Shown here piece after piece: positions 1-63,020 of a stretch of 64,000 nucleotides of DNA. The notes below the pieces were generated by a model. That model made no database searches. It was not told where the DNA came from and saw only the letters and a program-made list of their open reading frames with translations. The first letter of the stretch is position 1. Each line of letters opens with the position of its first letter. Source of the stretch: Naegleria gruberi (Eukaryota); assembly GCA_000004985.1 (NCBI GenBank), contig GG738936.1, one strand, 5' to 3'. The position numbers and the translations under genes are program-made.

Positions 1-145
1 ACCTTTCTCATCGAATGTGACACCAACCATTATTTCAGATCCACAAGTGATGAGAGCGATGGCTCCTCCAAGACGATTCATGAAACGAGTTGAAAAGAAA
101 AACAGCAAACCTGTACTAACGAATGGTGAAACGTTGAATCAATAA
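1..145 (+). CDS. 3'-terminal fragment of a BAR/RhoGAP-protein paralog (duplicate of 11203-11347); the gene body would lie upstream of the window
   Basis: nt 1-145 are near-identical to 11203-11347, including the same C-terminal peptide ...KPVLTNGETLNQ and the TAA at 143-145. Confidence 0.4.
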   Translation, partial: PFSSNVTPTIISDPQVMRAMAPPRRFMKRVEKKNSKPVLTNGETLNQ

Positions 146-693
146 AACACTCAACCAACTCTAAACAAGTTTATTCTTATCGCCACCAGTCAACCACCTC
201 AATATTTAATACACTTCAAAACACATCGAGTAAATCCTCGAACTATATTTTCTCAATTAATATGGCAAGTGGTCACCCCAATTCAATATTCTTAGCGTAC
301 TCATTTGAGCCTTTCCCTCTCCAAAACCCTTCGTGATAATTCTCTTGTAAACCATTCGAATAGAGTGCAATACTACAAGATACAACTTCATAGATTCAAA
401 AGCAGTGTTTTATTGTCATCCAAAATTTTCATCACAAAAAAATTTAGCGCAATCAAAATGTAAGTTGACGAGCATGTGTGCATGTGTTGATTTATTGATG
501 ATGATCGCATTATTTATTGTTGTTGTTGTTGAACATGTTATCTATATATTGTTGATGCGGATGGATGTGGTGATACGATGATGATCTTGATTTTGTATGA
601 ACCATGATGATGGAATTTATTTTGTTGATAACATGTATTGTTTAACAATGTTGATTTGATACTAAAATATAGCACAATACATATAGAGAGAAG

Positions 694-1554
694 ATGAGCG
701 AAGAGAAAAAGTTAGAGCACGTAACCTACATTGTTGCTGGTAACAAATTTGAAATTCCATCCAGATATGAAGTGAAGAAAGTCATAGGGCAAGGAGCTTA
801 CGGAGTCGTTGTGTAAGTATACTCTATGATGAAGATTATATTTAACAATTATCGTAATAATAATAATATTTAATTAATTTGATGATATTATATAGTTCTG
901 CTTATGATAGAGAGAGAAAACAAGAAGTTGCCATCAAGAAGATCTTCAACATTTTCGAACATGATAGAGAATATCAAAAGAGAATTTTGAGAGAAGTTAA
1001 AATCCTCCGTCATTTGGGAGAATGTGAAAATGTTGTTCAATTGTATGATTTGGTTCTTCCACCATCTTTTGAGGAATTTAATGACGTTTATATTGTCATG
1101 GAGTTTATGGATTCTAATTTGAGACAAATGATTAAATCTAATCAAGAATTAACAGATCAAAATATTCAATACTTTTTGTACCATTTACTTAGAGGTTTAA
1201 AGACCATTCACTCTGCTAATATTTTGGTATGTAATTGTTCTTTTGTACATAATTGTGCTGAACCTAATGCTCCGATAATTATTTAACTATTATTACTATT
1301 TAATATACTAAACAAAACGTAATATTCAACATTATATAGCACAGAGATATTAAACCATCAAATATTCTTATCAATGGAGATATGGAAATTAAATATTGTG
1401 ACTTTGGTTTGTCACGTGGTATTGAATCAGATACAAATCCTAAAATGTCAACAACTTATGTTGCCACTCGTTGGTACAGAAGTCCAGAATTGTTGCTCAT
1501 GTGGGATCAAGCAGGAAAACCATTGGATATTTGGAGTCTTGGATGTATCTTTGC
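694..1554 (+). CDS. ERK-type MAP kinase, 5'-partial duplicate copy (exons 694-812, 896-1226, 1340-1554), truncated by the N-gap
   Basis: same exon/intron structure and identical encoded peptide as the complete copy at 11896-13249 ([41 protein letters not shown]); the sequence stops at the gap and the post-gap sequence is unrelated. Confidence 0.5.
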
Positions 1555-1896: not shown

Positions 1897-4800
1897 TTAG
1901 AAGTCAACTAGGTCTTGGTCAGCTGGGACAACCTGATTGCTCTTGAGTTCAATTAAATTTGTTGTTTGTTGTGGTTTTTCTTTCTTTTCACGAGGGGTTG
2001 TAGATACTGATTCAGTGCTGTTTTCTATTGATGAGTTTGACTGATTTTCACAGAGGACAATGTGATCGTCATGGATTTTTCTTCTCTGCCTTGCTTTGTA
2101 ACAGAAGATTGCTGTTAAGCCAATGAATAATCCAATACAGCACAACCCTACAACAATTGAGAGGAAAATTGCAACTAGGAGGTAGGAAACTGAGCTTGAG
2201 ACTTTGGTTTCTATAATGAAAACATTCGTCAATTTGCTGCATCTACATCTGGCAATTTCTTCTGTAATTGAAACAAGGGTACATTCTTTTCTAATCTCTG
2301 AAGAACCATCTCTGAAATTTCCACATTCGAAAGATCTGGAAACATGAGTTACATCCAATTGATCCACTATAAATTGCTCATAATGGGTCTTGTTGATTGG
2401 AATATTATAATAAATTATATTATTTCCTCCTCCAAAATCAACAGGAACATCACTGAATGATAAAGAAACAATTGGAGAAATTAAATTAGAGCTTTCTCTA
2501 TCAGAGTCTTCATTCAAATGAGAAAGACTCAATCTAGATTGCAATGAATAAATATCTTGCGTAACAGATAGTGCATAGACAAAATACTTTTGTGAAATAT
2601 ATGACATGACATAATTCAAATCAACAAATGGTTCAATTTCAACAGAAGTTAAGGTGCTATTATCGTAAATATTATATGGGAAGTTGAAAAGTGTATGTCT
2701 ATTCAAAACAATAGAATAGAAAGGTCCATTAAAATGTGTCAAAGGACTTCCAACTGCATTAGATCTAGCAATTAATTTAGAGGATTTCATTAAGGCTGAC
2801 AATAGTTTAGCAGAGTTGGAACTTTGATCAACAACGTATTGTCTATCAATAATGTAATCTCTTGCAGATTTAATACAATTCAAAAGTAAGGTTTCAACTC
2901 CATTCGCAACCTTAAGTCCATCTATTCCTAAAGAGTATGTTAAAAATGTATTCAAAGTTGTGAGTGATTCAGAAATTGTGTCAGAGTTCAAATATGGATA
3001 ATTGACAAGGAGAGAATCAATAGCAAAAGCAAGCAATCCTACATAGTCATCATTAATGGTAACAACTGTGTTATTAGCGATAGAGATTATTCCATTCAAA
3101 ATTTGAAGTTTTCTCTTCTGAATGTTGGAGAAATCTCTAATAGAAATATCACAATTTCTTCCAATATAACCATCCTGACATTTACAGACTCCCGAAAGAT
3201 CATACCCATTTTGGCATATAATACTCAAATCACGTGATGATTTTGTAATGTGTTTAAAAGCATCAATAACAAGGACTGAGTCGGTTCTTGATGTTGAGGC
3301 AGATTGGTAAAAGCTCTTTCCAAACTCACCCTCCTGTGAGTAGTAAGTACTTAATTCAGACCAAAGCTTTACAAAATTTTGCACCTGTTCAATCTCTGAA
3401 ACAACTGGTTTTTCAATTTTAACATCCTTATAAACTGTTGTAAAAGCTCCAGTGGTTGTGTCAACCATTTCAAAGAAACAAGTAAGTTTGGAACCTTCGA
3501 AAGGAGCTGGAAGTTTTGATGAATACACTTCTCCTAAATTATAAAGAGGTACCTTCAAACCAGATCTATCATCAATGAAACCATATCTCAAATCTATGTG
3601 GTTTTCTTCGCTCTTGCAGTTGTAGCAAATAAAGTTAAAATCAGTATCCAATGCAGAACCATAGGGTGGTAAAACAGCACATTCACATGGTTTTGGAGAA
3701 ACAGCAATTTGGAAACCGTAGCTTGATTCACTTGATGTACCCTTAGATGCATCATATGTAAATAAGGAAACAAAATGTTCGGATCCTTCCACTAAATTGC
3801 TTGTATCAATATAGACAGTACTTGTTCTCTTATCATCTAAAGTTTGTTCAGATACTTGGGATTTATCCACCTTGATAGCATCCAACGTCCAAACCACTGA
3901 ATTAGAAATTGCAGAAATAGCACTAGAAGAAACTAGAACTTGAACAGTTAATAATTGTCCTCTTACAACCACTGATGACTTTGGCTCAATATTTATAACA
4001 TTAACCAAAGGGGGGATATTGTTAAAGTTGATGATTGTATCCTTTGTCAAGGATTTGCCATTAAACTTTTCTACCTTTAACCTTAAATGAATGGATGATG
4101 GAACGACATCGAAAAGTTGAGTGGTTACATTAAAAATGGTTGATTTAGATTCAGAGACAGATTGGAGAAAGGAGAGTAACTTCTGACTTGAATGATCAAT
4201 ACAAGACCAAGTCCAAACAGAGACAATATCTGAGTTGATTAAAGTTTCAGGGTCTGAATAATCAACTTTGAGAAGAGTGTGATCACCCTTTGCTTCCAAT
4301 TGAAGAACACCAAGTGTGATATTTGGAGTAAGAACATTCAGTCGAACAGTTGTGGATACTGTTAAACTTGGATCAGATGAATAGAAGGCAGACACTTTAA
4401 ATATGTAAGTGCTCTCTTCAAAATATTTCACACCTGGTATTACCAAGTTATTGTACGAATCCTCCTTAAATTCAATTGCTGATCCACTTTCTTTTTTCCA
4501 TTCAACTTCCACTTTGTCAAATTCAGATTGGCAAGATGAGGTTGTTATTGATTTCCTTATAGTTAGAGGAAACTGATAAGTAAATCTCTCAATTATTGTT
4601 TCATCCTTAAAAATGGAAAGAGATGGAAGAGGTTTAGTTGCTTTTGTAAAAGTTTTCGAATAAACAGGTGTACTAAACTTGTTGAGATAAACACTGTAGA
4701 CCTGAAGTTTGATTTTGTAACTTCCTGGAGCAAGCTCTGCCGAAACCATAAAATTTGGTTGAGCAGTCATCACAGCAAATACATCAGTCATTGAGGAGGC

Positions 4801-7800
4801 GTTAACAACAGACCAATAATACTTCAAAGGTTTTCTATCGACAGAATAGCTCAAAGATCCATCAACTGGTATAGCATCACAAGAGCTGAAGGTATCCAAA
4901 GGCGGTATTTTCAAAGCTGCCACGGGTGCAATTGTGGTCATGTTCTGAGGATAAGCAACTGTGAAAGAATTCCATGCAAAAGCTGGCACATTATCGAAAA
5001 CCAACATATTCAATTTAATGGTGGAACCTGGATAAACTGTAAAGTCAAATGAACCAAATGTTATCATAAACAAGCCACTTGTCTTGTCAACATAACTACA
5101 TGAGATATCCCGTTCCAACCCATAAAGATTATTCGCCACATCAACACTAAATAGTAACTTTGAGCATGATATTTTCACATCTGTTTTGTTTGGAGGAGAG
5201 TACATATAGAACTGCAATCCCTTAAAATCTGCAGTTATTCTCACCGTCGAACCAAAATAGGTGAGGCACTGGTCTCCATAATATCCAGGCTTGCATTGAT
5301 TACACCAATACCCAGTCCAATAACCAGCTGTGCTTGTTGAATAGCAGGAACATTTACTATTCTTACAGACACCATGACCAGAGCAATTAAGAGATGATGT
5401 ACAATTTGAGTTTACAACAATGACTGTAGTGTTAGTTGGTGAGGTGGTGTTTGTTGAGTTCGAATTGGAGGTAACATTCCAATTTGTAGTGTTAGAAACT
5501 ACAGTAGAGTTATCAATATAGGATGTGTTTCTAATAGTGCAATCCGTTCCAATTTTGCATGAACAAGTAGAGTCATAAAAACCTGTAAAGCAAGTACAGT
5601 TATTGAAACTATAACAAGTTCCATTTCCAGAACATACTGAAGATGAATTCATTGGTACAGAATAGCAAGTTGTAAACTCGCATTGGGATCCATAGTAACC
5701 ATTTGAGCAATTACAGATATTTGGTCCAATACAGGAACCTCTTGAACTACAGACGGTGTTATTCGATTGAGAAATTCCTCCACATGTGATTAGGGAGCAA
5801 TCACTTCCGATATAGCCCTGTTTACAAGCACACTTATTNNNNNNNNNNNNNNNNNNNNNNNNNNNNNNNNNNNNNNNNNNNNNNNNNNNNNNNNNNNNNN
5901 NNNAAGCTTGAGGAAATAGAGTTGTTTTCTGTACAGCTTGCTGAGATGCAAAGAGGAACATTGTTCCTGTGATTTTAGATCCTGAAACAATGTCACCATA
6001 GGGGGCCATGAGGGTTCCTTTAAAATCACCACTTATTAAAAATTGAGTAGCAATCCAAAACACTGAACTAGGAGAAGCATTACTTATCATGGTCACTTCA
6101 AAATTGTTATAATTCAAATACCCAGTCTTGAATACGACTCTCTCTGGGCCATTGATAACAACCTTACTTGGCCCTATCCAACCATTTGGAAAACAATACA
6201 CACCTCCTTGATTAATGTACAAGTTTGGAACATTTAATCCAAAGGTGTAATTGCATGGTAGTGCCGATAGCTTTTGAACCAGAGAAAGGGCTGTAGACAC
6301 AGCTTGATTTGCTTCCCAATCATTTTTGTGTAATTTGGCAGCTCCTTCCATACGATAGTAATTTGTTGGTAGAATTTCTCCCCAAATCGAAGGATGATAG
6401 TATGACGTTGGTTCAATCTTCGATCCAACGATAGCTATACTTCCACTAAGATCAATATATTTCAAGCTTTTCAAATATATTGAAGATCCACTTAATATGA
6501 TTGAATATCCAGCCAGAGGAGAAATAACTGGTCTTGTTTCAATCTCATTACAGTAAGTTCCTTTGTATCCAATCTTACAAATGCAAGTATTTGAATATTT
6601 ACAAAGTCCATTTGAGTTGCAACTTGCATTGTTTGAGTTTAGAATACCATTACATGTTGTGATAGAGCAATCCGATCCAGAGAATCCACTATCGCACGAA
6701 CAAATATTGGAGCTGCATGTACCATGACCAGAGCATACAGAACTATCTGTAGATAATACTCCATTACACATGCCCACAGAACAATCAAATCCGTAACCAT
6801 TTGGACACGAACAAGAATCGTATCCAACACAGTTTCCTATCCCTGCACAAACACTAGAGTTTCTTGATTCAATTCCATAGCAATATGTAAAGCTGCATTG
6901 AGGTTCAATAGAAAACCCTTTGTACGGATCAAAGTTATCTAATGGTGTGAACGACACATTTTTTAAAATTGGATTTACAGTTGTTGAAATGGAAAATATT
7001 GTTCCTGTAATAACAGCATTGGAAGCTGTTATTGATCTTGCTATTAAATTTCCTTTAAAATTTCCACTTATCTTGGCTGTTTTATCCACAATCCAATAGA
7101 GATTATAAGGTGATGCACATTCTGTAAATACTACTTCCACATTTTCACTCACAAAATTATCTCCAAAAATAGCAAAAATTACTCTATCTACTGTTGAAAT
7201 AACAACCTTGCTAGGTCCTTTCCAACCAGCTGTTAGCTTGTATGTTCCTCCACTTTTTACCTCCAGATAAGGTATGGAACCATCATTCAAAATAAAGTCA
7301 TAGATTGGTGTAAACCTTGATGGGTCAAATAATACCATAGCTTGTGTAACAAGGTTACTGGCAAAACTATCCTGTTCATGTATGACCAGTCCATCATTGA
7401 CATAAATACCAAATGGACTGTCTTGCCTTAATAGAGATGATGTTGTAGCAATATTTCCTGTTGTGTTAATATCCCTCTCGGTAACATAAATCCCAGCTCT
7501 AGACACTATTGAGTATCCCGCAAATAAATTCTCTATTGAGGCAGTTTCATTACAATATTGATTTACATATCCAACAAAACATGTGCACTTTTCATTCTCC
7601 GTACACATGCCTTTTGAAGAACAAACACTTGATGAATTACTATAAACTCCATCACATATTATTTCCTGAGCGAATACTCCTCCTCTAACTATTCGATATT
7701 CTTGTTCCTTACTATTATTCTGTTGTAAAATCCATATTGATGATGGCGCTGATGATTGCAGAATAATACAGCCAACTATCACATAGATCATAAAAATCCG

Positions 7801-7815
7801 TAAATCTCGCATCAT
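1897..7815 (-). CDS. very large (about 1970 aa) type-I membrane glycoprotein with tenascin/EGF-like Cys repeats, two internal homologous beta-rich modules, a C-terminal TM helix and a short basic tail
   Basis: ATG 7815 followed by a signal-peptide-like hydrophobic stretch; repeated CxxxGxCxxxxCxCxxGxxGxxC EGF/tenascin-type motifs in two blocks; the GWxGPSKVVI...ISGxFKG module occurs twice; C-terminal LLVAIFLSIVVGLCCIGLFIGLTAIFCY TM then KARQRRK; many NxS/T sites; single continuous frame across the 65-N gap. Confidence 0.75.
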   Translation of the reverse strand: MMRDLRIFMIYVIVGCIILQSSAPSSIWILQQNNSKEQEYRIVRGGVFAQEIICDGVYSNSSSVCSSKGMCTENEKCTCFVGYVNQYCNETASIENLFAGYSIVSRAGIYVTERDINTTGNIATTSSLLRQDSPFGIYVNDGLVIHEQDSFASNLVTQAMVLFDPSRFTPIYDFILNDGSIPYLEVKSGGTYKLTAGWKGPSKVVISTVDRVIFAIFGDNFVSENVEVVFTECASPYNLYWIVDKTAKISGNFKGNLIARSITASNAVITGTIFSISTTVNPILKNVSFTPLDNFDPYKGFSIEPQCSFTYCYGIESRNSSVCAGIGNCVGYDSCSCPNGYGFDCSVGMCNGVLSTDSSVCSGHGTCSSNICSCDSGFSGSDCSITTCNGILNSNNASCNSNGLCKYSNTCICKIGYKGTYCNEIETRPVISPLAGYSIILSGSSIYLKSLKYIDLSGSIAIVGSKIEPTSYYHPSIWGEILPTNYYRMEGAAKLHKNDWEANQAVSTALSLVQKLSALPCNYTFGLNVPNLYINQGGVYCFPNGWIGPSKVVINGPERVVFKTGYLNYNNFEVTMISNASPSSVFWIATQFLISGDFKGTLMAPYGDIVSGSKITGTMFLFASQQAVQKTTLFPQAXXXXXXXXXXXXXXXXXXXXXXNKCACKQGYIGSDCSLITCGGISQSNNTVCSSRGSCIGPNICNCSNGYYGSQCEFTTCYSVPMNSSSVCSGNGTCYSFNNCTCFTGFYDSTCSCKIGTDCTIRNTSYIDNSTVVSNTTNWNVTSNSNSTNTTSPTNTTVIVVNSNCTSSLNCSGHGVCKNSKCSCYSTSTAGYWTGYWCNQCKPGYYGDQCLTYFGSTVRITADFKGLQFYMYSPPNKTDVKISCSKLLFSVDVANNLYGLERDISCSYVDKTSGLFMITFGSFDFTVYPGSTIKLNMLVFDNVPAFAWNSFTVAYPQNMTTIAPVAALKIPPLDTFSSCDAIPVDGSLSYSVDRKPLKYYWSVVNASSMTDVFAVMTAQPNFMVSAELAPGSYKIKLQVYSVYLNKFSTPVYSKTFTKATKPLPSLSIFKDETIIERFTYQFPLTIRKSITTSSCQSEFDKVEVEWKKESGSAIEFKEDSYNNLVIPGVKYFEESTYIFKVSAFYSSDPSLTVSTTVRLNVLTPNITLGVLQLEAKGDHTLLKVDYSDPETLINSDIVSVWTWSCIDHSSQKLLSFLQSVSESKSTIFNVTTQLFDVVPSSIHLRLKVEKFNGKSLTKDTIINFNNIPPLVNVINIEPKSSVVVRGQLLTVQVLVSSSAISAISNSVVWTLDAIKVDKSQVSEQTLDDKRTSTVYIDTSNLVEGSEHFVSLFTYDASKGTSSESSYGFQIAVSPKPCECAVLPPYGSALDTDFNFICYNCKSEENHIDLRYGFIDDRSGLKVPLYNLGEVYSSKLPAPFEGSKLTCFFEMVDTTTGAFTTVYKDVKIEKPVVSEIEQVQNFVKLWSELSTYYSQEGEFGKSFYQSASTSRTDSVLVIDAFKHITKSSRDLSIICQNGYDLSGVCKCQDGYIGRNCDISIRDFSNIQKRKLQILNGIISIANNTVVTINDDYVGLLAFAIDSLLVNYPYLNSDTISESLTTLNTFLTYSLGIDGLKVANGVETLLLNCIKSARDYIIDRQYVVDQSSNSAKLLSALMKSSKLIARSNAVGSPLTHFNGPFYSIVLNRHTLFNFPYNIYDNSTLTSVEIEPFVDLNYVMSYISQKYFVYALSVTQDIYSLQSRLSLSHLNEDSDRESSNLISPIVSLSFSDVPVDFGGGNNIIYYNIPINKTHYEQFIVDQLDVTHVSRSFECGNFRDGSSEIRKECTLVSITEEIARCRCSKLTNVFIIETKVSSSVSYLLVAIFLSIVVGLCCIGLFIGLTAIFCYKARQRRKIHDDHIVLCENQSNSSIENSTESVSTTPREKKEKPQQTTNLIELKSNQVVPADQDLVDF
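5839..5903. other. assembly gap (65 N) inside the large CDS
   Basis: run of N; reading frame happens to be maintained across it. Confidence 1.
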
Positions 7816-8942
7816 TTTTGAGGTTCAGCTGTAAAGGTGTATTGATTCACTTTTTTAAGGTTATTTTATCACCACAAGGTATCACCACTACACGCTGTTG
7901 GTAATTGAGTTGTGGAAAGTTCTCTCTTACTGCACAGAACAATATATTTCTAACGGCAATCGCTCGAGCGTTGTTATTCAGGCACAAATATTAATAAGGT
8001 ACTATTCAAATTAACAAGGTAAAATACAATCTAATTAAGGTCTTGAAAATTTGTTTTGGTTTGTTAACCAATTATCGAAGGGCTCAAAGAGTTTCCTCCT
8101 CAACATGATGATAAGAAAATGTCCTTAATAATACTATTACTTTGTTAGTGGAGAGCTTCTGCTTGATTTTACCAGGTTTGATTTCAAATTTCTGCAAGTG
8201 CTGTAAATTCATATTGTTGTGTTTTCAGTATTAATACAATGAGTATAATGGATAATAGAAAGCCCTTTAAAATGCATTACAATAGAAAGCAAGTGAAATT
8301 TAGGATGAGCCATTCAAGAGTGATATTGATTTTGAAAGATTTCCACAACATTAATGTTTCGTATTAGTATTAATTACCCTTCTTATCATCCGAGTGAGCA
8401 CATACGGTCTGCAAAAGTCTCACAACAATAGTCCACTTTAATAGTACTTTCAACAAAATGAACTAACAACATTGCAGGAGTACATTGCCAGGGTGCAATC
8501 ACACAATATTCGAAACTGATCCCAAAAAGTTATTAAATAATTTGCACTGTTATGTTCTCACAATAATTACTGTCCATTATCCATTCCTTGATTACAATAA
8601 GCAGCAGATCTGCTGTTAGATGGTTGCACATTGACAAATTTAATAAACATTAAAGGATGCGAAAGCTTCGATTGGTTGGTTGATCCTTCATGTTTCCTTC
8701 TAATTAAGCACCTGGTTAGGGTGTGAAAATGATAATTTTAATGACGGAAAACATTTTGTTGCTTGTCATCACATAATTTTCAATTCTTTCTGCCAGACGT
8801 CACAAATCAAGATCGTCAAAACAAGCAAAAAAAAACAACCTGAGTCACCCTCTTTACAGTTCCCTTCCAATCGTGTGTTGTAGATATTCACAACAAACAT
8901 CCCAAACAAATTGTGTTCGAAACATTTCCAATAACTTTCATC

Positions 8943-11347
8943 ATGAGCAGCAATAACCTACAAGCCTTCTCAAAAATCAAAAATCTCTTCCAACGAACAC
9001 AAAGTTCTGCTGCCAACAATAATAATAACGGCGATGCAAACAATTCACTCCCTTCAACCTCAACTAACAATTCGAATAATTCCTATTCTAATCTATCCTC
9101 ATCTCATGCAGCAACAACATCAAACAACACAGCAGGTTCTTCCTCATCATCATTATCATCGAGTCAGGGAACACTACTTTCCAATTCAAATCCTAATTTA
9201 TTAGCAAATACATCAATTAAACCTCCGTTAGAAATTGAACATGAATTTTTCTCAACACTTGAGGAACACCAAGATACGATGGAATTTTATAAGAAAGCGG
9301 AGAAGAAACTGTTGGATTTGAAAAAGAGTTCAAAGAAAATGATAGAAAAAGAACATGATATTGCTACATTGTTTAATGATTTTGCTCCCAAGTTTAAAAA
9401 GAATAAGGAAATGAGTGAAACTTTACGAAAGTTTGGTGGTAATTTGAAATCAACTTCAACACTCTTGTCACAAGCAGTAAGTTTTTTAGTTTTATTTTGT
9501 ATGGGTTTTAATAATGAAACTATATTGTTTTGAAAATACTTCAACAGATGATGAAACTGGACGAATTCAAAGATAAAACACTAGAAATGAGAGATGAAGG
9601 AAAAACCATATCCAAATTTAGGAGCAAGTATGATTCTGCAAGAAGTGATTATGAATCATTCAAGTTGGAAACACCTCGTGTGAATCCAGATAAAGATGGT
9701 TTTACAAACAAGCCAAATGAGCACGGAGAATATGATCCGCAATATATTGAAAGAACAAAGAAAGTTGAGGAAGATTTCAAACTAATTGCTAAAAATCTTA
9801 ACAATGCCTACTCTGATTATCATAATGAGTTGGATTTCCAACTATTGAAAAGAGATACCGAATATTTCTCAGACCTTAAATCATTTATTTATGCATACTA
9901 TTGCTATTTTAGTACTGGTATGGCTCTTTTCCAACAATTGGATAATGTAGTAAAGAAGGCAGAAGAAGCACAAATGCAAGAAGGTCATTTGTCAAAATCT
10001 AATGGAGTTCGTAATATTGCAGTGATACCAAAGCATATTTTCCCACATATAACTGCAGATAGAAATACTGTCTTTGGTGCACCATTGGAACAAGTAATGA
10101 TTCAGGATTATGATTCTGGTATTTTACGTTTGCCTCCCTCTATCAAGCAATTGTTTGATTTGATTAGAGCATTCGGATTGGATCAAGAAGGTGTTTTCAG
10201 AGTAAACTCTGATGAACAATACATGAAAAAGCTCATTATTGATATTGAAATGGGAAAGGAAATCCAATATGTGAATAAGTCATACTTTGTTCCAAGTATT
10301 GCTGGTGTGTTGAAACTTTTTGTGAGAGAATTGCAAGAACCACTCATGACTTTTGATGCATTCCAAGAAATTATTCTCAATCCAGACATGCAAACTCTGC
10401 CATCTGAATCTTCTGTAAAAGAAGGTCAAGTTTCAAAACTCAAAGAATTTATCAACACTAAGGTACCAATCCATTATCAAGTTGTCCTGTATGAATTGTG
10501 TAAACTTTTGAATGAAGTTGCACAACATGAGGACAAGAACAAGATGCACGCCAATAATTTATCTCTCATCTTTAGTATGAACCTTTTCAGACCTAGATTG
10601 GAAAATGCAGTCCAATTAGCTCAAAATGTCAAACATATGAGTTATGTCACATGTTTACTCATTGAAAATTTTGATACCCTCTTTGAAGCATCTCTAAAGA
10701 CAGTCTGTGATACACAAAACGAAGATCCATATGAACAAATTAGAAAGAGTATTGCTGAACAAAGGGAAGAAATACTTGATGAACCTGAATCTAATCCAAA
10801 CACTGCAAGAAGTATTGAAATCAAGATTGTAAACTTTGAACAAGAAAAGAAAGAGGAAGATTCTGAGGAGTCAGATTCAGATGATGAATCCGATATTGAA
10901 TCATCAGAAGATGTTGATACCAATAGTTCAATTTCATCACCAATGTTGACTTTCTCTGATTTACCAACCCTCAATTCTAGTGAAATCATTCAACCAAAAC
11001 GCCATTTAGATAGAAATGTCAAATATGATCACAAACATGTCACTTCCAACCATAATGTGAGTTTAATTCTCGCTCCATCCAAAGATCAATCCAAAGACCA
11101 AACTAAACTTCCAACATTCTCTCCAAGAATTGTAAAAATTAGAGCAAGAAACAATTTAGAAAATACAGATTCAATGCCAACAGAAATCGTGGAAATAAGT
11201 GAACCTTTCTCATCGAATGTGACACCAACCATTATTTCAGATCCACAAGTGATGAGAGCGATGGCTCCTCCAAGACGATTCATGAAACGAGTTGAAAAGA
11301 AAAACAGCAAACCTGTACTAACGAATGGTGAAACGTTGAATCAATAA
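8943..11347 (+). CDS. BAR-like N-terminal domain + RhoGAP domain protein with acidic/Ser-rich C-terminus; exons 8943-9476, 9548-11347
   Basis: RhoGAP signatures GVFRVNSDEQYMKKL, IAGVLKLFVRELQEPLMTF and NKMHANNLSLIFSMNLF; N-terminal coiled-coil BAR-like region; intron GTAAGT(9477)...CAACAG(9547) joins two track ORFs in frame; first ATG at 8943 (the track ORF starts at an upstream GTG). Confidence 0.8.
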
Positions 11348-12775
11348 AACACTCAACCAACTCTAAACAAGTTTATTCTTATCACCACCAGTCAACCTAC
11401 TCAATATTTAATACACTCCAAAACACATCGAGTAAATCCTCGAACTATATTTTCTCAATTAATATGGCAAGTGGTCACCCCAATTCAATATTCTTCGAGT
11501 ATTTATTTGAGCCTTTCCCTATCCAAAACCCTTCGTGATAATTCTCTTGTAAACCATTCGAATAGAGTGCAATACTCAAGTTACAACTTCAAAAGCAGCG
11601 TTTTACTGTCATCCAAAATTTTCTCCACAAAAAAATTTAGCGCAATCAACATGTAAGTTTACGAGCATGTGTGCATGTGTTGATTTATTGATGATGATCG
11701 CATTATTTATTGTTGTTGTTGAACATGTTATCTATATATTGTTGATGCGGATGGATGTGGTGATACGATGATGATCTTGATTTTGTATGAACCATGATGA
11801 TGGAATTTATTTTGTTGATGATGATATTATTGAACATGTATTGTTTAACAATGTTGATTTGATATTATTAAAATATAGCACAATACATATAGAAGATGAG
11901 CGAAGAGAAAAAGTTAGAGCACGTAACCTACATTGTTGCTGGTAACAAATTTGAAATTCCATCCAGATATGAAGTGAAGAAAGTCATAGGGCAAGGAGCT
12001 TACGGAGTCGTTGTGTAAGTATACTCTATGATGAGGATTATATTTAACAATTATCGTAATAATAATAATATTTAATTTGATGATATTATATAGTTCTGCT
12101 TATGATAGAGAGAGAAAACAAGAAGTTGCCATCAAGAAGATCTTCAACATTTTCGAACATGATAGAGAATATCAAAAGAGAATTTTGAGAGAAGTTAAAA
12201 TCCTCCGTCATTTGGGAGAATGTGAAAATGTTGTTCAATTGTATGATTTGGTTCTTCCACCATCTTTTGAGGAATTTAATGACGTTTATATTGTCATGGA
12301 GTTTATGGATTCTAATTTGAGACAAATGATTAAATCTAATCAAGAATTAACAGATCAAAATATTCAATACTTTTTGTACCATTTACTTAGGGGTTTAAAG
12401 ACCATTCACTCTGCTAATATTTTGGTATGTTATTGTTCTTTTGTACATATTGTGCTGAAACTAATGCTCCGATAATTATTTTACTATTTAACTATTATTA
12501 TTACATAATAATCATCTATTTTATACACTAAACAAAACGTAATATTCAACATTACATAGCACAGAGATATTAAACCATCAAATATTCTTATCAATGGAGA
12601 TATGGAAATTAAATATTGTGACTTTGGTTTGTCACGTGGTATTGAATCAGATACAAATCCTAAAATGTCAACAACTTATGTTGCCACTCGTTGGTACAGA
12701 AGTCCAGAATTGTTGCTCATGTGGGATCAAGCAGGAAAACCATTGGATATTTGGAGTCTTGGATGTATCTTTGCT
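11203..12775 (+). repeat. segmental duplication, copy 2 (matches 1-1554)
   Basis: see the copy-1 feature. Confidence 0.8.
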
Positions 12776-13249
12776 GAAATGTTGGATAAACCACCAAAGA
12801 GGAAAGTTCTCTTCCCTGGTAAGAATTATCTTAACCAATTGGATTTGATTCTTGACGTTACAGGTACACCAACTGATGAAGAAACAAGAGGATGTGCCAA
12901 GGCAAAGAAATACATGAAAACACTTCCAAAGAAACAAAAACAAAACTTTAAAGATATTTTCCCACATGCTAATCCATTAGCAATTGATTTATTGGAAAAG
13001 ATGTTGACTTTTGATCCTCTTAAGAGAATAACAGTTGAAGAAGCTCTTGCTCATCCATATTTGGAATCAATGTTTGAAGAAGATGAAGACGAAGAAGGTG
13101 TTGAACTCTTCTCATTCAATTGTGATAATGAAATGCCAATCGAAGAAATCAAAAAGTTGCTCCACGAAGAAATTGTTGATTATAACAAAGTACAAGGTGT
13201 TACCACTAAGCCAGTCATAACAGATATTGTTTATGAAATTAAAGAATAA
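11896..13249 (+). CDS. ERK-type MAP kinase, complete; exons 11896-12014, 12094-12424, 12560-13249
   Basis: kinase subdomains [30 protein letters not shown], activation loop [15 protein letters not shown], and a MAPK C-terminal docking region; introns with GTAAGT/GTATGT donors and TATAG/CATAG acceptors that restore the frame. Confidence 0.85.
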
Positions 13250-13392
13250 AAACGTTATTGTAATTTTATCACAAGCTTCCTAAAATTCCAATTTTCTTAC
13301 AACATTCTACAATATATATCTCTTTACAAATTCCATTCAAAAAAATAGCTCTAGATTGGAAGGCTACTATTTAACGCTTGAATAATATAATA

Positions 13393-15837
13393 ATGATGAC
13401 GATCCAACAAGATGAAGAAGAACAGCTCCATGGAACACCAGTTAATTGCCTCGCAGCAACAAGATCAAGATGGAAGGAATTGATGTCTCCCGATACTTTG
13501 GAATTGATCTTTAGTTACTTAGAGGCAAAATATAGAATGGTGATGGAATTGGTTTGTCTTGATCTTAGGCTTGCCTGTCTATCAGTGGAGAGTAGAGAGT
13601 TTTTCGCAATTTTCAATCAATTAAATGATGAAACACTTGTTTGTAAACCTCTGAGAGAAGGAGCAGTAGATGACGAGGAAATTGAGGTATTCGAGAGAAG
13701 AATGCCTGGTTTTAAGGTTGACTTTTATACAAGAGAATTATTGAAAACAACAAATGGAAGAATTGATTGGAATGATTCCTTGTTTCACCCTGTAAATATG
13801 ATAGCTCCTATTCAGGAATGGACTAAAGATTTTGGATACTTGTATTATAAGGACAAGGCTCCAATATTGGAATTACTACAATTATCAGATTTTAATTTTG
13901 TTCATGATTGTTTGGTTTGTATTGGATCAACATCTCAAAAAATTTGCTGGGGAATGTCAGAGGATTTAATATATAATCCATTCCACACTCGTACAAGGAA
14001 ATTGTATGCTGACAAGAATTTCAATTTGTATGATCTGGAATATAGGGCATATGATGATTATGCATTTAAAAAGTTGGGAAAGTTAAAAAAATGGTTAAAG
14101 AGCTTTTTACCACAAAAACAGTTAAATGTTAAAATTGTGCCTAAACGAGAGCCTATCAGGTTCGCAACTGAGGAAAAGAAAAATGATCCAGAGTTCGTGA
14201 CAAAATATTTAAAAACAAATGGAAGTCAATTGAAATATGTTTCAAAAGAACTAAGGAATAATAAGGAAATTGTAATGGTAGCAGTTTCCAATTATGTAGA
14301 TGCAATTCAATTTGCCTCAGATGAAATCAAGGACGATGATATTTTCATGAAAGATATTTTACAAATTCATCCTCTAACAATTAGATTTTGTTCTGAAAGA
14401 GTGAAAGGCACTCATGTTACAAAAGAGGCACTCAAAGCCAAACCTTTCAGAATGAAAGAGTTACCTTCACTTTCTATTGAAGAGTTCATTCCAAGATCTG
14501 TTATTGACGATAAGGAATATGCCTTAAGTATGATCGATAATACATGTAGTACTTACCATTCACTGTCTGACAATTTGAAGAATGACCGAGATATTTGTTT
14601 GAGAGCTGTAAAAAACCGCCTAAGTATTTCTCAAATTCCTCCTATTTATGCAGATGACAAAGAGATTGCACTTACTGCCGTAAGACTTTCTTCCTACGAA
14701 TACCTATCAATATCTGAAAGGCTAAAGAGAGATAGAGATGTTGCCTTAATTGCGCTAAAAAATTCAACACAGAGCATTGTTCATAAAGTACCAGAGGAAA
14801 TTCGAGGCAATAGTGGTCTGATAATGGAATCCATTACTAAAACTAATGCAAGAGTTCTTTTTGAAATTGCTTCTGAAGAACTGAAAACAAACGATAGAGA
14901 ATTAATTCTCAAATTTCTGGTTAATCATTCATATATCTACCATTCCCTTAATGAAGCTTTAAAACAGGATGTTGAGATATTTTCAAGTTATCTATTGAGC
15001 ATGATTGAAGGCGGGGAGAGAAACTATTATAGATCATTAGAATTGTTACCTAATCAAGTGCTTTACTTATTTTGTAATGATTACACCAAAGCTGTATTGC
15101 TATTTAGAGCTCATCCTATTGCTTTTGAATTGATAAATCGTAACCTTAGGGCAAATAAGAATTTCATATTGGAAATATTGGAATATAGACCTATTGACAT
15201 TTCTAAAATAGATCATTCACTACTATGTGATGAGGACGTGTTAATGAAATTAGCAGACAGAGGTCTAGGAGAAGAATTGATGAATGTTCTTCCAAACCTG
15301 CAAAATGGATTCAAAATGAGTGCCAAGATGATTGAGCATCTAGTAGCTACTAATCCAATTACCATAGATTCTTTGAAACAAACTCCTGAACTAGTTAAGA
15401 TTGCCATTACTCACGGTGCCAAATGTCGTCGTCCAGTGATATCACTAATTAAGGAAGAAATGTTGACATTGGAATTGGTGGAATTTGCTTTAAAGAGCAG
15501 CTTGTGTCGTTGGCCAGATGTTCCATTATCCTTCCACACCAAAGACAATATTTTACAGATTTTGAAATCTTATCCGAAATTGTATGGTTTGGGTATGTTC
15601 GGTCTAGGCTGGCGCCAAAGACAAGATTTGGATTTTATCAACCTTTCGATTCGTGAACCCACCAATTTTAAAGAAATACCTCCAAGTTTCCTTACTTCAG
15701 AGCTTGTTATTGAGGCAATCCAGCATAATAATGCTGCCAATGTTGAACAGTACATTTATCCACATCTGCCAGTTGTCTTCTATGAAAATGAACAAGTTTA
15801 CAATTTGCTTAGAGAGAAAATTTCATATTTTAAATGA
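13393..15837 (+). CDS. DUF4116-repeat protein (about 814 aa)
   Basis: about 10 repeats of the pattern K/RxDRE/DIxLxAVKxNxxxLQYASxELKxD (e.g. NNKEIVMVAVSNYVDAIQFASDEIKDD, DRDICLRAVKNRLSISQI, DKEIALTAVRLSSYEYLSISERLKRDRDVALIALKN); first ATG at 13393 (track ORF starts at TTG 13378). Confidence 0.6.
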   Translation: MMTIQQDEEEQLHGTPVNCLAATRSRWKELMSPDTLELIFSYLEAKYRMVMELVCLDLRLACLSVESREFFAIFNQLNDETLVCKPLREGAVDDEEIEVFERRMPGFKVDFYTRELLKTTNGRIDWNDSLFHPVNMIAPIQEWTKDFGYLYYKDKAPILELLQLSDFNFVHDCLVCIGSTSQKICWGMSEDLIYNPFHTRTRKLYADKNFNLYDLEYRAYDDYAFKKLGKLKKWLKSFLPQKQLNVKIVPKREPIRFATEEKKNDPEFVTKYLKTNGSQLKYVSKELRNNKEIVMVAVSNYVDAIQFASDEIKDDDIFMKDILQIHPLTIRFCSERVKGTHVTKEALKAKPFRMKELPSLSIEEFIPRSVIDDKEYALSMIDNTCSTYHSLSDNLKNDRDICLRAVKNRLSISQIPPIYADDKEIALTAVRLSSYEYLSISERLKRDRDVALIALKNSTQSIVHKVPEEIRGNSGLIMESITKTNARVLFEIASEELKTNDRELILKFLVNHSYIYHSLNEALKQDVEIFSSYLLSMIEGGERNYYRSLELLPNQVLYLFCNDYTKAVLLFRAHPIAFELINRNLRANKNFILEILEYRPIDISKIDHSLLCDEDVLMKLADRGLGEELMNVLPNLQNGFKMSAKMIEHLVATNPITIDSLKQTPELVKIAITHGAKCRRPVISLIKEEMLTLELVEFALKSSLCRWPDVPLSFHTKDNILQILKSYPKLYGLGMFGLGWRQRQDLDFINLSIREPTNFKEIPPSFLTSELVIEAIQHNNAANVEQYIYPHLPVVFYENEQVYNLLREKISYFK

Positions 15838-16110
15838 ATTTACAATAGATCATTAGAAATTGCTATTTGAAGATTACAATCTTAATTGTCATAATGTTAT
15901 TCAACAAACCTATTATTTAATTGATATTGAATTTTACTAGTCAAACTATTAAATGTCATTCGTCTAAATTTAGAAGGTAGATAAATTGAACACTTTAGTA
16001 AAAAGAGTAACAACAAATAATCCATCATCAAACAACAACTACTGCCCCTTCACCACTTCTTTTAATTCATCATCAACAACATCTAATTCCCTTCTTCCAA
16101 CAGAAAAAAA

Positions 16111-16746
16111 ATGTTTCAAAAGCACTCACTCAAATCATTCTCAAATCTTACAACCAAGAAGAATTCCAAATCAGTCGCCACGATTCTATGTGGTACCAAT
16201 TCAGTACCAACTGCTAGCGAAGGATCCTTCCAAATGAAGTTGCATTCCAAGAGACAATCATCTCTGCCCTACTTTTGTAAATATTACAATACAAATCATA
16301 CCAATACTGCATCACCAGCAGTTGCACTCTCCACTACTCATGGAGCTGCATCTAATGCGTTCCATCATGTTGATTCATTTACTTCATACAATACTCATCA
16401 ACACAAGCAACAGCATCAACAACACGATCAGAATGTAGCTGATTATCATCAGGCAATGAATATTCTCAGAGAATTGAATCAAATCCGACATCAGAATTAT
16501 GTGCTCAATAAGCAAATAAGTCACTTGCAGGAATATGTGCATGTGAAGGAGTCCAATACAAATAATTCAGCCAATCTAAGCTCTTGGATGGATACAAATC
16601 CATTCAAATTTGGATTGTTGTGTGGAAGTGTTGTGTTTGTCTTAATTGCCTTGAGAATGGACTTGGAAAAGAATAGAAAGAAAGTGAAGGAACTCAAGGA
16701 GGAGCTTTCTAAACTCTCCATCAAGAGAAGATATGGTAACTATTGA
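16111..16746 (+). CDS. hypothetical Gln/His-rich coiled-coil protein with a single C-proximal TM segment (tail-anchored-like)
   Basis: ATG-initiated 211-aa ORF with hydrophobic FGLLCGSVVFVLIAL near the C-terminus; no recognisable family. Confidence 0.4.
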   Translation: MFQKHSLKSFSNLTTKKNSKSVATILCGTNSVPTASEGSFQMKLHSKRQSSLPYFCKYYNTNHTNTASPAVALSTTHGAASNAFHHVDSFTSYNTHQHKQQHQQHDQNVADYHQAMNILRELNQIRHQNYVLNKQISHLQEYVHVKESNTNNSANLSSWMDTNPFKFGLLCGSVVFVLIALRMDLEKNRKKVKELKEELSKLSIKRRYGNY

Positions 16747-17574: not shown

Positions 17575-17647
17575 GCCCGTCTAGCTCAGTCGGTAGAGCG
17601 CAAGGCTCTTAACCTTGTGGTCGTGGGTTCGACCCCCACGGTGGGCG
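17575..17647 (+). tRNA. tRNA-Lys (anticodon CUU)
   Basis: GCCCGTCTAGCTCAGTCGGTAGAGCGCAAGGCTCTTAACCTTGTGGTCGTGGGTTCGACCCCCACGGTGGGCG folds as a cloverleaf with A/B boxes (TAGCTCAGTCGG, GGTTCGA); anticodon loop CTCTTAA. Confidence 0.9.
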
Positions 17648-17654
17648 ATTCATG

Positions 17655-17659
17655 TTTTT
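17655..17659 (+). terminator. Pol III T-run terminator for tRNA-Lys
   Basis: TTTTT 8 nt after the tRNA 3' end. Confidence 0.5.
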
Positions 17660-19575: not shown

Positions 19576-19648
19576 GCCCGTCTAGCTCAGTCGGTAGAGC
19601 GCAAGGCTCTTAACCTTGTGGTCGTGGGTTCGACCCCCACGGTGGGCG
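19576..19648 (+). tRNA. tRNA-Lys (anticodon CUU), second identical copy
   Basis: 73/73 nt identical to the copy at 17575-17647. Confidence 0.9.
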
Positions 19649-19655
19649 ATTCATA

Positions 19656-19661
19656 TTTTTT
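19656..19661 (+). terminator. Pol III T-run terminator for the second tRNA-Lys
   Basis: TTTTTT shortly after the tRNA 3' end. Confidence 0.5.
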
Positions 19662-30593: not shown

Positions 30594-30664
30594 TCGGGCG
30601 TGGTATAGTGGTAGCATTCCAGACTGTCACTCTGGCGACCCGGGTTCAATTCCCGGCGTTCGAG
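30594..30664 (+). tRNA. tRNA-Asp (anticodon GUC)
   Basis: TCGGGCGTGGTATAGTGGTAGCATTCCAGACTGTCACTCTGGCGACCCGGGTTCAATTCCCGGCGTTCGAG; D-arm GTATAGTGG typical of tRNA-Asp; anticodon loop CTGTCAC; T-loop GGTTCAATTCC; TTTT 7 nt downstream. Confidence 0.85.
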
Positions 30665-30908
30665 ATATAATTTTACACAATTTCTTTAATTTTATATTTT
30701 GTATGTTCAACTTTCTTATTACTATAATAGACATAGTATTGTTGGGCCAATTTATATGCAAATTATTCAAAGTGAAAGATTGTTTTAATCTAAATAAATA
30801 CCAGAGTGTAAGTGTGAGTGTAATACCGAATTAAGGTCGATCGAAACACATTATTTATTGTGCCTAATGCTGCTTCTTATTCAAAATTAAGATTTTGATA
30901 TTAAGAAT

Positions 30909-31026
30909 GGGTACGGCCATATCACGATTCATGCACCTCATCCCGTCCGATTTGAGAAGTTAAGCATCGTCGAGCCACATCAGTACTGAGGTTGGAGACA
31001 ACTTGGGAACCTGTGGTGCTGTAGTC
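30909..31026 (+). rRNA. 5S ribosomal RNA
   Basis: GGGTACGGCCATATCACG...CCGTCCGATTTGAGAAGTTAAGC...GTACTGAGGTTGGAGACAACTTGGGAACCTGTGGTGCTGTAGTC matches the universal 5S pattern (box A/C region, loop E, closing helix I). Confidence 0.85.
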
Positions 31027-31031
31027 TTTTT
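31027..31031 (+). terminator. Pol III T-run terminator of the plus-strand 5S gene
   Basis: TTTTT immediately 3' of the 5S rRNA. Confidence 0.6.
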
Positions 31032-31707: not shown

Positions 31708-32704
31708 TTCGTATTGTTTTTTAAGATTTGTATTTCTCTGTATTCAGATAATCGAAACTAAAGCTCTTTGTTTCTTGAAAGGATAAATGATGAAAATTCG
31801 CGTAATCCTAATAGAGCTCTTCCATAGATCTCAACATGCCAGAGAACTATTAGAAATACCATGAAATGCATCTCGAGTATCGAGATTAGTTCAGTTTAGT
31901 GTTTTGTGAATAAAATAGAAGCACAAGTCCAAAATAAGCATTACTATGCATTGGCAATGTTAAGAGGTGAAATACTCAAAATGGAAACATAGAAGAATAA
32001 GTACTGTGTTTCAAATAATGAAAGGATTTCCTTACTGCTGACAAGTCCTGATTCATGACAAGCACATGACTTGTTAAACTGTTGATAAATTTGGCCTTTC
32101 CTAATCCGTGTATTATTTAATTTCGAGAATGTTGTGTTGAAAATTATCGGTGCTTCTTTTTGAGATTTGAGAATGCCAACCTATTCCATTCATTCATTCA
32201 ACTCGGTATGCAAATAAATTAATTGTAGAAAACTAAAATTTTTATGAAATGTTAATGGAAAGAAAATTAATTTGGATAATCAATGTTTATATTATTGATA
32301 TAATTATACTTGGTTTCAATTATTTATTTGGACCGGAAGCCTGCCAGGAATATGGCGACGATCCCGCTACAGTCTTTGACTGTATGAACAGTGAAGGCAA
32401 CTAATCTATTGATTGTTGGTTCAGTAAGTTATTGTTTAGAAAAGCTTGCCACCTGACCATCTATTTATCACCTTTGAATTTGATCTATTTAGAAAGAGAA
32501 ACTTTTGGTTGATCAATTTTCGATAAAATTTCCCTTTCGAATTTGAGTCTTCAAATATTGAAATAGTGAAGATGCTGTGCAATTGTTCATAGAAAATGTT
32601 TCTAAACCAAGTTGACCCAGGCTATCATGTAAATTGTAAATAATCAAAATAAAGTATCCTTCTCAATAAGTTCTTACCGAGCAATATCTTATTTGCTAAA
32701 AAAA

Positions 32705-32822
32705 AGACTACAGCACCACAGGTTCCCAAGTTGTCTCCAACCTCAGTACTGATGTGGCTCGACGATGCTTAACTTCTCAAATCGGACGGGATGAGGTGCA
32801 TTCATCGTGATATGGCCGTAGC
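32705..32822 (-). rRNA. 5S ribosomal RNA, inverted copy
   Basis: reverse complement of 30909-31026 with a few substitutions; poly-A on the plus strand at 32698-32704 gives a minus-strand T-run terminator; about 35 nt of 5' flank is also conserved with the plus copy. Confidence 0.85.
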
Positions 32823-32942
32823 CATTCTCAATATTAAAATCTTAATATTAAATAAGAAAACGGACAATATTCATTAATTTTTGCAAGGAATATAAAACGA
32901 ATACATATCTTAAATATTTAATACATTTAAATTGGATATGAT

Positions 32943-60836: not shown

Positions 60837-63020
60837 TTATAAAAATTCTTGGGCAAACTTTAAAAAAAACAATGGCAAAAGTTTTGGAGGTAATTTTAAA
60901 ATTGTCTCACAATCAGGAAAGAGTTGTCTTCTGTGCTTAATTCCAAATGTAATCAATTCATTATAAAAACCCTCAAAACATTGCAAACCAATATAATTTT
61001 CACAAGCTGAAACAATATCTATATAATTATCAATGGAAATTGATAATTCATTCTTACAATATTTAACTAAATATTCCATTTCATGTTTCATGGCCATATC
61101 AAGAAGACGAAGCAACTTTTCGTATTTAACATCTTGAACTGGAGTTTCATAACATGTCTTGATGATAATTTCCAAAAATTCAAAATCATCTGAAGAATCT
61201 GGAATAAAAATATCATTACTGAGATCGGTAAATGTTGATCCACTGTCAAACATGGCATTAAATAATGTACTTGAAGAGCTTAAAATTGTTTTGTGGCAAT
61301 ACAAGTAATTATCTTCATCAATTTGAATTTTCAAATCACTCGTTTTCTTATCGTTATATAATTTACCAATATCCATCAATTCTATTTCTACTGCTTCATC
61401 AATAATTATATAATTTGGTTGGGACAGTGAGTGTTTTGACAAGATGTTAGCAGCATTTTTCACAATGATTGGAAGATTTGGCAAACTATTGACTCCTCCT
61501 GGAGTTTTCATTTGAATGGCAGCAAATTCAACACAATAATTATTCAAATATTCAAGAATATAATTTTCTAAATGAAAATCACTACATTGAGAAAGATAAA
61601 TTTCAATTTGTTCCCATTTAAATGAAAGATTTTGAATAGTAAGTGATTGAATAAATTGAGTTGTGCATAATTTTTTCAATTGAATAAATTCATTATTCTT
61701 GAAAAATCCTAAAATGAATAAAACATCCAATATTTCATCATTGTTAAATTTCAATTGAATTTCATTATTATAAATTAAAGAGTCAATTAATTTTTGAATA
61801 ATTTCTTGTTGAATTGAATTCATTGATGAAATTAGTGATTCATTCTTTAAAATATATTTACAAAATAGTGGTGATACCATTTCAACGAGAGGAATGAATG
61901 CATAAATTGATGAATTAAACAATAAATCTCTTGAATGTTTTTTCAACTTGGCTTTGCCATACGTGGAAGAATATATAGGGCCAATGTGTGGATATTTTGA
62001 AAAATCAAATACTGAATCACCATCATATCCTAATTCTCCATTTCCAGCTATTGTTATAATATTTCCATTTTCCAATATTTTTCTAATTCTGTTATTTTGA
62101 TAATCAGCAATATAAACTTCATTATCTTGGGAAACAAAAACACCTACTGGACTATACAATTTTGCATTTACTGCAAGACCATTATCACCACCATATCCTA
62201 ATTTTCCATTTCCTGCTATCGTTATAATGTTTCCATTTTCCAATATTTTTCTAATTCTGGTATTTTGGTAATCAGCAATATAAACTTCATTCTTTGATGA
62301 AACAAAAACATCTACTGGACTAGACAACTTTGCATTTACTGCAGGACCATTATCACCACTATATCCTTGTTGTCCATTTCCAGCTATTGTTATAATATTT
62401 CCGTTTCTTAATATTTTTCTAATTCTGTGATTACCAGTATCAGCAATATAAACTTCATCATTTGGCGTAACAAAAACGCTTGATGGATCAAAGAGTGGTG
62501 CATTTACTGCAGGACCATTATCACCATTATATCCTTGTTGTCCATTTCCTGCTATTGTTACAATATTTCCATTTTCCAATATTTTTCTAATTGAGTGATT
62601 ACCAGAATCAGCAATATAAACTTCATTCTTTAGTGAAACACAAACACTCGATGGACTAGCCAGTTGTGCATTTACTGCAAGACCATTATCACCATTATAT
62701 CCTTGTTGTCCATTTCCTGCTATTGTTATAATGTTTCCATTTTCCAATATTTTTCTAATTCTGTTATTTTGATAATCAGCAATATAAACTTCATTCTTTG
62801 ATGAAACAAAAACATATGATGGACTAACAAGTTGTGCATTTACTGCAAGACCATTATCACCACTATATCCTTGTTGTCCATTTCCTGCTATTGTTACAAT
62901 ATTTCCATTTTCCAATATCTTTCTAACTGTGTGATTACCAGTATCAGCAATATAAACTTCATCATTACTTGATGAAACAAAAATACTCCTAGGATTAAAC
63001 AATTGTGCATTTGTTGCCAT
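60837..63020 (-). CDS. NHL-repeat beta-propeller protein with C-terminal BTB/BACK-like domain
   Basis: six tandem repeats of about 57 aa (EVYIADxxNxRIRKILENGNIITIAGNGQQGYxGDNGLAVNAQLxSP) = NHL; C-terminal DLKIQIDEDNYLYCHKTILSSSSTLFNAMF = BTB core followed by a BACK-like helical region. Confidence 0.7.
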   Translation of the reverse strand: MATNAQLFNPRSIFVSSSNDEVYIADTGNHTVRKILENGNIVTIAGNGQQGYSGDNGLAVNAQLVSPSYVFVSSKNEVYIADYQNNRIRKILENGNIITIAGNGQQGYNGDNGLAVNAQLASPSSVCVSLKNEVYIADSGNHSIRKILENGNIVTIAGNGQQGYNGDNGPAVNAPLFDPSSVFVTPNDEVYIADTGNHRIRKILRNGNIITIAGNGQQGYSGDNGPAVNAKLSSPVDVFVSSKNEVYIADYQNTRIRKILENGNIITIAGNGKLGYGGDNGLAVNAKLYSPVGVFVSQDNEVYIADYQNNRIRKILENGNIITIAGNGELGYDGDSVFDFSKYPHIGPIYSSTYGKAKLKKHSRDLLFNSSIYAFIPLVEMVSPLFCKYILKNESLISSMNSIQQEIIQKLIDSLIYNNEIQLKFNNDEILDVLFILGFFKNNEFIQLKKLCTTQFIQSLTIQNLSFKWEQIEIYLSQCSDFHLENYILEYLNNYCVEFAAIQMKTPGGVNSLPNLPIIVKNAANILSKHSLSQPNYIIIDEAVEIELMDIGKLYNDKKTSDLKIQIDEDNYLYCHKTILSSSSTLFNAMFDSGSTFTDLSNDIFIPDSSDDFEFLEIIIKTCYETPVQDVKYEKLLRLLDMAMKHEMEYLVKYCKNELSISIDNYIDIVSACENYIGLQCFEGFYNELITFGIKHRRQLFPDCETILKLPPKLLPLFFLKFAQEFL
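62030..63000 (-). repeat. tandem about-171-nt repeats (near-identical at DNA level) encoding the NHL blades
   Basis: strings such as ccattatcaccattatatccttgttgtccatttcctgctattgtta(c/t)aat(a/g)tttccattttccaatat recur with about 171-nt period. Confidence 0.6.

Follow-up and report, generated by a model that had tools for sequence, protein, structure and literature searches.

Gene content and boundaries of the two copies

The stretch of DNA analyzed here, referred to as the window, comprises 64,000 nucleotides of contig GG738936.1 of the Naegleria gruberi assembly GCA_000004985.1. Its first 1554 bases (copy 1, 1-1554) recur in direct orientation, at an offset of ~11.2 kb, at positions 11203-12774 (copy 2), both copies being read on the plus strand. 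A gapped alignment of the two spans 1594 columns with 97% column identity, far beyond what is expected by chance, and takes in all 1554 visible bases of copy 1, which BLAST matches in pieces that are 97.3% and 99.6% identical. The match reported in the original prediction is therefore real, although the partner ends at 12774 and not at 12775. Copy 1 contains a divergent core (182-1335) with flanks that are identical to copy 2 over 181 and 219 bases. Copy 2 is embedded in contiguous sequence that is colinear with an independent contig (L001, see below), and we read it as the true locus. Copy 1 appears to be a contig, or the right end of one, that duplicates 11203-12774, and is proposed below to be the corresponding region of a second haplotype. 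It begins at the first base of the window and, as predicted, its left boundary lies outside. On the right it stops, to the base, at 1554, in the middle of an exon, where the contig gives way to a scaffold gap of 50 Ns (1555-1604). Beyond this gap lies the 3′ flank of a REJ/EGF-repeat gene, and the first 600 bases are unrelated to copy 1 and match nothing else in the window, again in agreement with the original description. The only other run of Ns in the window (5839-5903, 65 Ns) is likewise located between the two copies, and a search of the window for other duplications around either gap found none. No duplication junction is present in the sequence, since the visible (right) end of copy 1 is a contig end and its left end is outside the window.

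The duplicated segment runs from the 3′ end of a RhoGAP gene into the 5′ part of a MAP kinase (MAPK) gene. Both gene labels had been assigned before from the sequence and are borne out by a RhoGAP domain match (Pfam PF00620) and by the MAPK matches given below. The complete RhoGAP-domain gene (8943-11347, plus strand) is located upstream of, and extends into, copy 2; it consists of a first-exon ORF (8943-9533) and a main ORF (9530-11347), the splice between the two being undefined, and its product is 66% identical to N. lovaniensis C9374_013408. Copy 1 holds only the end of this gene (1-146, plus strand), that is, the last 47 codons (2-142) and the stop codon (144-146), in a stretch identical to 11203-11348; the translation, PFSSNV...ETLNQ*, is the C-terminus of the 9530-11347 ORF. 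The following intergenic region and MAPK 5′ leader (147-693) carry most of the substitutions and indels that distinguish the copies, and include a putative 5′UTR intron (460-672, GTAAGT...ATAG) that is proposed from consensus splice signals only.

The MAPK gene is complete in copy 2 and the sequence that follows it (11896-13249, plus strand), where three exons (11896-12014, 12094-12424 and 12560-13249) form a spliced coding sequence for a protein of 379 amino acids. This model is backed by the N. fowleri ortholog FDP41_013572, which is also 379 amino acids long and is 87% identical over 100% of the length, and orthologs from Willaertia are 82-84% identical. In copy 1, exon 1 (694-812, with the ATG at 694) and exon 2 (896-1226) are complete, and the gap cuts exon 3 (1340-1554) after its first 215 nt, so that the spliced product corresponds to residues 1-221 and the last 158 codons are absent as assembled. 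The protein contains a protein kinase domain (Pfam PF00069, E = 1.6e-63), and among proteins of solved structure it is closest to Arabidopsis MPK6 and human ERK2 (E = 1e-103 over residues 10-359). Like these ERK-type enzymes, it aligns over its full length and has a T-x-Y motif followed by VATRWYR(S/A)PE, and judging from these matches it is an ERK-like MAP kinase of the CMGC group. It differs from them in that the activation loop reads T-T-Y (residues 188-190; codons 1451-1459 in copy 1 and 12671-12679 in copy 2) instead of the usual T-E-Y. This is a feature of the gene and is unrelated to the duplication, T-T-Y being shared by the orthologs of N. fowleri and Willaertia magna.

The region 8943-13249 is under-called in the reference annotation. 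The product of 12602-13246 is identical to N. gruberi EFC36163.1/XP_002668907.1 (NAEGRDRAFT_54529), a 215-amino-acid fragment from the last exon that is recorded on a 79,899-bp contig, and the databases list the three-exon MAPK of 379 amino acids in this form only. For the RhoGAP gene, the protein search matches include no N. gruberi model. Both genes should therefore be flagged as poorly annotated.

Differences between the copies and selective constraint

Between copy 1 and copy 2 we counted 24 substitutions and 10 indel events, the latter adding up to 60 bp. The coding sequence had been described as identical, which holds exactly for the encoded proteins and very nearly for the DNA, the single coding difference being a synonymous one in an Arg codon of MAPK exon 2 (AGA/AGG; A at 1193, G at 12391). 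The remaining 23 substitutions, like every one of the 10 indels, fall outside coding sequence, in the intergenic spacer, the putative 5′UTR intron and introns 1 and 2; the indels are thus located where they had been predicted to be, in introns and intergenic DNA. Among the variants specific to copy 1 are an 8-bp insertion (TTCATAGA) at 387-394 and a deletion in intron 2 near 1294. Divergence amounts to 1/811 bp (0.12%) in coding and 23/722 bp (3.2%) in non-coding sequence, a ~26-fold difference (Fisher p = 5e-7), and the probability that at most one of the 34 events would fall in coding sequence is 3e-10. When the coding sites compared (642 nonsynonymous and 162 synonymous) are assumed to change neutrally at the non-coding rate, 20.5 nonsynonymous and 5.2 synonymous changes are expected, against 0 and 1 observed; the probability under neutrality is 1e-9, or 4e-5 if only the copy 1 lineage is taken to be unconstrained. 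The start codon, the GT/AG splice sites and the reading frame of copy 1 are intact over 221 MAPK and 47 RhoGAP codons, and scanning copy 1 for frameshifts, stop codons and loss of splice sites revealed none.

Since coding sequence is far less diverged than non-coding sequence and the frame is intact, both copies stem from genes that have been maintained by selection. Such strong purifying selection fits the very high conservation of this MAPK across heterolobosean genera. One caveat is that a brand-new duplication of an already diverged allele would give the same pattern of differences, because the polymorphisms would have existed before the duplication.

Comparison with an independent haplotype

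A third version of the locus is provided by a 7526-bp metagenome contig in ENA (L001; ERZ929261/ERR1078381) from another N. gruberi strain. It is colinear with window positions 8815-16308 at 98.9% identity, carrying the RhoGAP gene, the complete MAPK gene and a DUF4116 gene in that order, and it is unbroken at the position equivalent to 1554. The RhoGAP protein is encoded at 100% identity both on L001 and on a Logan contig from the same run (L002), the two contigs differing at 2/2142 sites. Further exact look-ups for independent contigs with intron 2 variants of the copy 1 or copy 2 type, using the exon 1 ORF and both exon 2 read-through ORFs with L or M as start, returned only L001 or nothing, and the same was true of the 88-amino-acid ORF at 1606-1872, which was used to look for contigs carrying the sequence to the right of the 50-N gap. 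Nor did a search with the REJ/EGF gene find a near-identical metagenome contig spanning position 1605. No mention of the project, PRJEB11402, was found in the literature.

In a three-way alignment of L001 (2388-3983), copy 1 (1-1554) and copy 2 (11203-12774), private changes number 13 substitutions and 6 indels in copy 1, 13 and 6 in copy 2, and 2 and 2 in L001. If the three sequences were exchangeable, an L001 branch this short would arise with P = 0.001, and 13 versus 13 is no asymmetry between the copies. A duplication younger than the split between the strains would make the L001 branch the longest, and an older one would place L001 nearer to copy 2. Neither is seen, so that neither paralogy tree fits, and relative to the haplotype of the other strain copy 1 and copy 2 are, on this alignment, not each other's closest relatives. 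Over the 7.5 kb that it shares with the window, L001 differs by 0.2-0.4% in coding ORFs and by 1.3-2.4% in non-coding sequence. Given this similar level of variation along the whole contig and the equal distance of L001 from both copies, the divergence between copy 1 and copy 2 is that of ordinary allelic variation at a polymorphic locus, and each copy passes equally well for an allele of it. As L001 stems from a different strain, this comparison is to be read accordingly: it tells nothing directly about the structure of the region in the sequenced strain.

L001 switches between copy 1 and copy 2 states within 2-4 bp (sites 294, 296 and 300), which shows it to be a genuine third haplotype rather than a collapsed consensus. 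Together with its few private changes, this mosaic suggests either old shared polymorphisms or a recombinant ancestry from two diverged haplotype classes. Taking the mosaic as proof of recombination, or of bubble-popping by the assembler, was considered and rejected as over-interpretation, because three sequences would interleave in any case; only the branch-length asymmetry was used.

The gene order in N. lovaniensis was also considered as a test of the duplication. In this species (PYSW02000006.1, 358459-380923) the RhoGAP ortholog is followed by a gene for a leucine-rich repeat (LRR)/dual-specificity phosphatase protein, without an adjoining MAPK. The adjacency of the RhoGAP and MAPK genes is thus not conserved across Naegleria species, and the comparison is uninformative with regard to the duplication.

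Copy 1 as a probable second-haplotype contig

We consider it probable that copy 1 arose as an artefact, either a haplotig or a product of scaffolding, and represents the second allele of a single RhoGAP-MAPK locus. Naegleria is described as mainly heterozygous diploid in PMC9928731, which credits the heterozygosity of N. gruberi to the genome paper (Fritz-Laylin 2010). If the sequenced strain is heterozygous, copy 1 would be haplotype B of the locus, with alleles that are near-identical in exons and set apart, in AT-rich introns and intergenic sequence, by ~3% substitutions and ten small indels. The Sanger whole-genome assembler may have left the reads of the divergent core unmerged, so that these formed a separate contig, and the scaffolder would then have placed this contig ~11 kb upstream of its true position, beside a 50-N gap. 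The outcome would be a false 'heterotype' duplication and a seemingly truncated MAP kinase, the truncation being nothing other than the contig end. A divergent core between identical flanks is the shape expected of a small contig built from reads that are anchored in a heterozygous core. The 50-N gap, which is smaller than the 65-N gap, may represent a minimum placeholder. Since copy 1 ends on the right where its contig does, at a gap within an exon, no junction in the sequence underlies the seeming truncation of the MAPK. What had been headed a segmental duplication with a truncated MAP-kinase copy is accordingly present in the assembly, but probably not in the genome, and of the two readings offered for that MAPK copy, an assembly problem is favored over a pseudogene fragment.

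Artefacts of this kind are well documented. Kelley and Salzberg (2010) described how diverged haplotypes give rise to false duplications that mate links put at adjacent locations, the shorter contig aligning wholly to its longer neighbor (PMC2864568). A false heterotype duplication is recognized when the shorter contig aligns over about its whole length, with at least 96% identity, to a nearby contig on the same scaffold. All of the visible 1554 bases of copy 1 align above this level, and this alignment to a nearby contig, at 97% or more, is the signature of a duplicated, contained contig. Ko et al. (2022) regard gaps between the members of a duplicated pair on one scaffold as a primary hallmark of false duplication, and report that such duplications are commonest in Sanger assemblies, with examples in which a few exons are falsely duplicated nearby (PMC9516828). 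Here, one gap abuts copy 1 and a second one (5839-5903) separates it further from copy 2. The differences are those of allelic polymorphism, consisting of SNPs and small indels, shaped by selection and at a level like that between L001 and the window. Copy 1 thus resembles the known cases in being a gap-bounded neighbor of high identity on the same scaffold, in its SNP and small-indel differences, in adding an apparent, partial extra gene, and in coming from a draft made by Sanger whole-genome shotgun sequencing, here of an organism that is reported to be heterozygous. This likeness is one of sequence, the class being diagnosed also by half read depth, discordant mates and single-copy k-mers. 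Most likely, then, copy 1 belongs to an ordinary and well-known class of draft-assembly artefact, and is neither a biological feature nor a new gene copy. From these sequence comparisons we infer that, in the sequenced strain, both copies belong at one and the same chromosomal position. Two points weigh against the second-haplotype reading: copy 1 is on the same scaffold and in the same orientation as copy 2, so some link supported its placement nearby, and true recent duplicates are also expected to break contigs in near-identical sequence.

Counting copy 1 as a locus would inflate the numbers of N. gruberi kinase and RhoGAP genes as well as estimates of segmental duplication, and would add a spurious 'MAPK pseudogene' to the genome. 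Read as alleles, the pair would instead be a phased sample of the variation in the sequenced strain, amounting at this locus to ~3% in non-coding and ~0.1% in coding sequence.

Alternative explanations

The original prediction had left the choice between a real recent duplication and a second haplotype. The pattern of differences and the symmetry of the two copies with respect to L001 favor the second haplotype, and a real recent segmental duplication, located ~11 kb upstream, in which both copies are intact and selectively maintained and the gap hides the remainder of the copy 1 MAPK, appears unlikely. It would account for two copies that share 97% identity, face the same way and are separated by 11 kb on a single scaffold, whether the duplication is viewed as dispersed or tandem, and purifying selection on both could reflect two functional paralogs. 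Near-identical repeats can also cause assemblers to end contigs within them, and the Willaertia magna assembly has a near-identical pair of MAPK orthologs, each on a contig of its own, although these may themselves be haplotigs. Yet both junctions of a genuine duplication should be readable, and here the right end of the copy is a gap within an exon and the left end lies beyond the window; unlike in a recent duplication, there is no junction at the sequence level, and substitutions avoid coding sequence ~26-fold. The 50-N gap would moreover have to accommodate no less than 0.5 kb of MAPK exon 3, plus its 3′ flank, before position 1605. Two paralogs should also coalesce with each other, whereas with 13, 13 and 2 substitutions on the branches of copy 1, copy 2 and L001 neither paralog tree fits (P = 0.001 for the short L001 branch), the copies not being mutual closest relatives when the haplotype of the other strain is included. 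Their divergence equals the usual variation between haplotypes at the RhoGAP-MAPK locus, the independent strain has one uninterrupted locus, and the neighboring REJ/EGF gene has no second near-identical N. gruberi copy on record, its cluster having a single member. Even if the duplication were true, the result would be a young gene duplicate of an unremarkable kind.

A rather improbable variant is that a very young, dispersed cassette consisting of the RhoGAP tail and the MAPK was made ~11 kb upstream from the other allele, with the second MAPK being either complete, and hidden in the gap, or freshly truncated. The caveat on pre-existing polymorphisms given above applies to this case.

A further alternative, that a partial duplication ending near 1554 gave rise to copy 1 as a truncated MAPK pseudogene fragment without function, is very improbable. 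As assembled, the copy does stop 158 codons short of the end of the MAPK, with unrelated DNA beyond; the point of 'truncation' is, however, a contig end and not a junction. A pseudogene should show disabling mutations or relaxed constraint, and copy 1 has no frameshift, stop codon or splice-site loss, with divergence at 0.12% in coding against 3.2% in non-coding sequence. A neutral fragment should have accumulated ~10 or more coding changes, against 0 nonsynonymous and 1 synonymous next to 23 non-coding substitutions and 10 indels. With no nonsynonymous change and 33 of the 34 differences in non-coding sequence, copy 1 is not a pseudogene fragment that has been drifting for long, and this alternative would require an extremely young duplication that was copied from an already diverged allele.

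An origin of copy 1 outside the sequenced clone, for example in a second N. gruberi strain present as a contaminant or in a chimeric clone, with the contig joined by chance, is extremely doubtful: copy 1 is about as distant from copy 2 as an unrelated wild haplotype would be, but the reported heterozygosity of Naegleria explains a second haplotype without contamination, and the contig was scaffolded near the homologous locus, as expected if its mates share the genome region.

Other features of the window

The two W. magna copies of the MAPK ortholog (P0040 and P0041) are found on contigs of 76 kb and 1.29 Mb, and may represent the same kind of haplotype redundancy as that proposed here for N. 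gruberi. The REJ/EGF-repeat gene whose 3′ flank adjoins the 50-N gap is encoded on the minus strand by an ORF of 1972 codons (1897-7815). The 65-N gap lies inside this ORF, the frame staying open across it, and the reference model of the gene is 1832 amino acids long.

Further along the window, two tRNA-Lys(CTT) genes are separated by 2 kb, each being contained in one copy of an 85-nt repeat (17575-17659 and 19576-19660); the repeats share 99% identity and reach past the 3′ end of each gene. A tRNA-Asp(GTC) gene is present at 30594-30664, and just 3′ of it is an inverted repeat of 158 nt (30874-31031 and 32701-32858), the arms of which are 96% complementary and enclose 1669 nt. Finally, a tandem array at 62016-63012, with a period of 168 bp, 5.9 copies and 84% identity, occupies the N-terminal half of a minus-strand ORF of 727 amino acids (60837-63020). 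It encodes 56-residue repeats with the pattern NEVYIAD...IRKI...NGNI.TIAGNG, which by eye look NHL-like and appear to be ordinary coding repeats.
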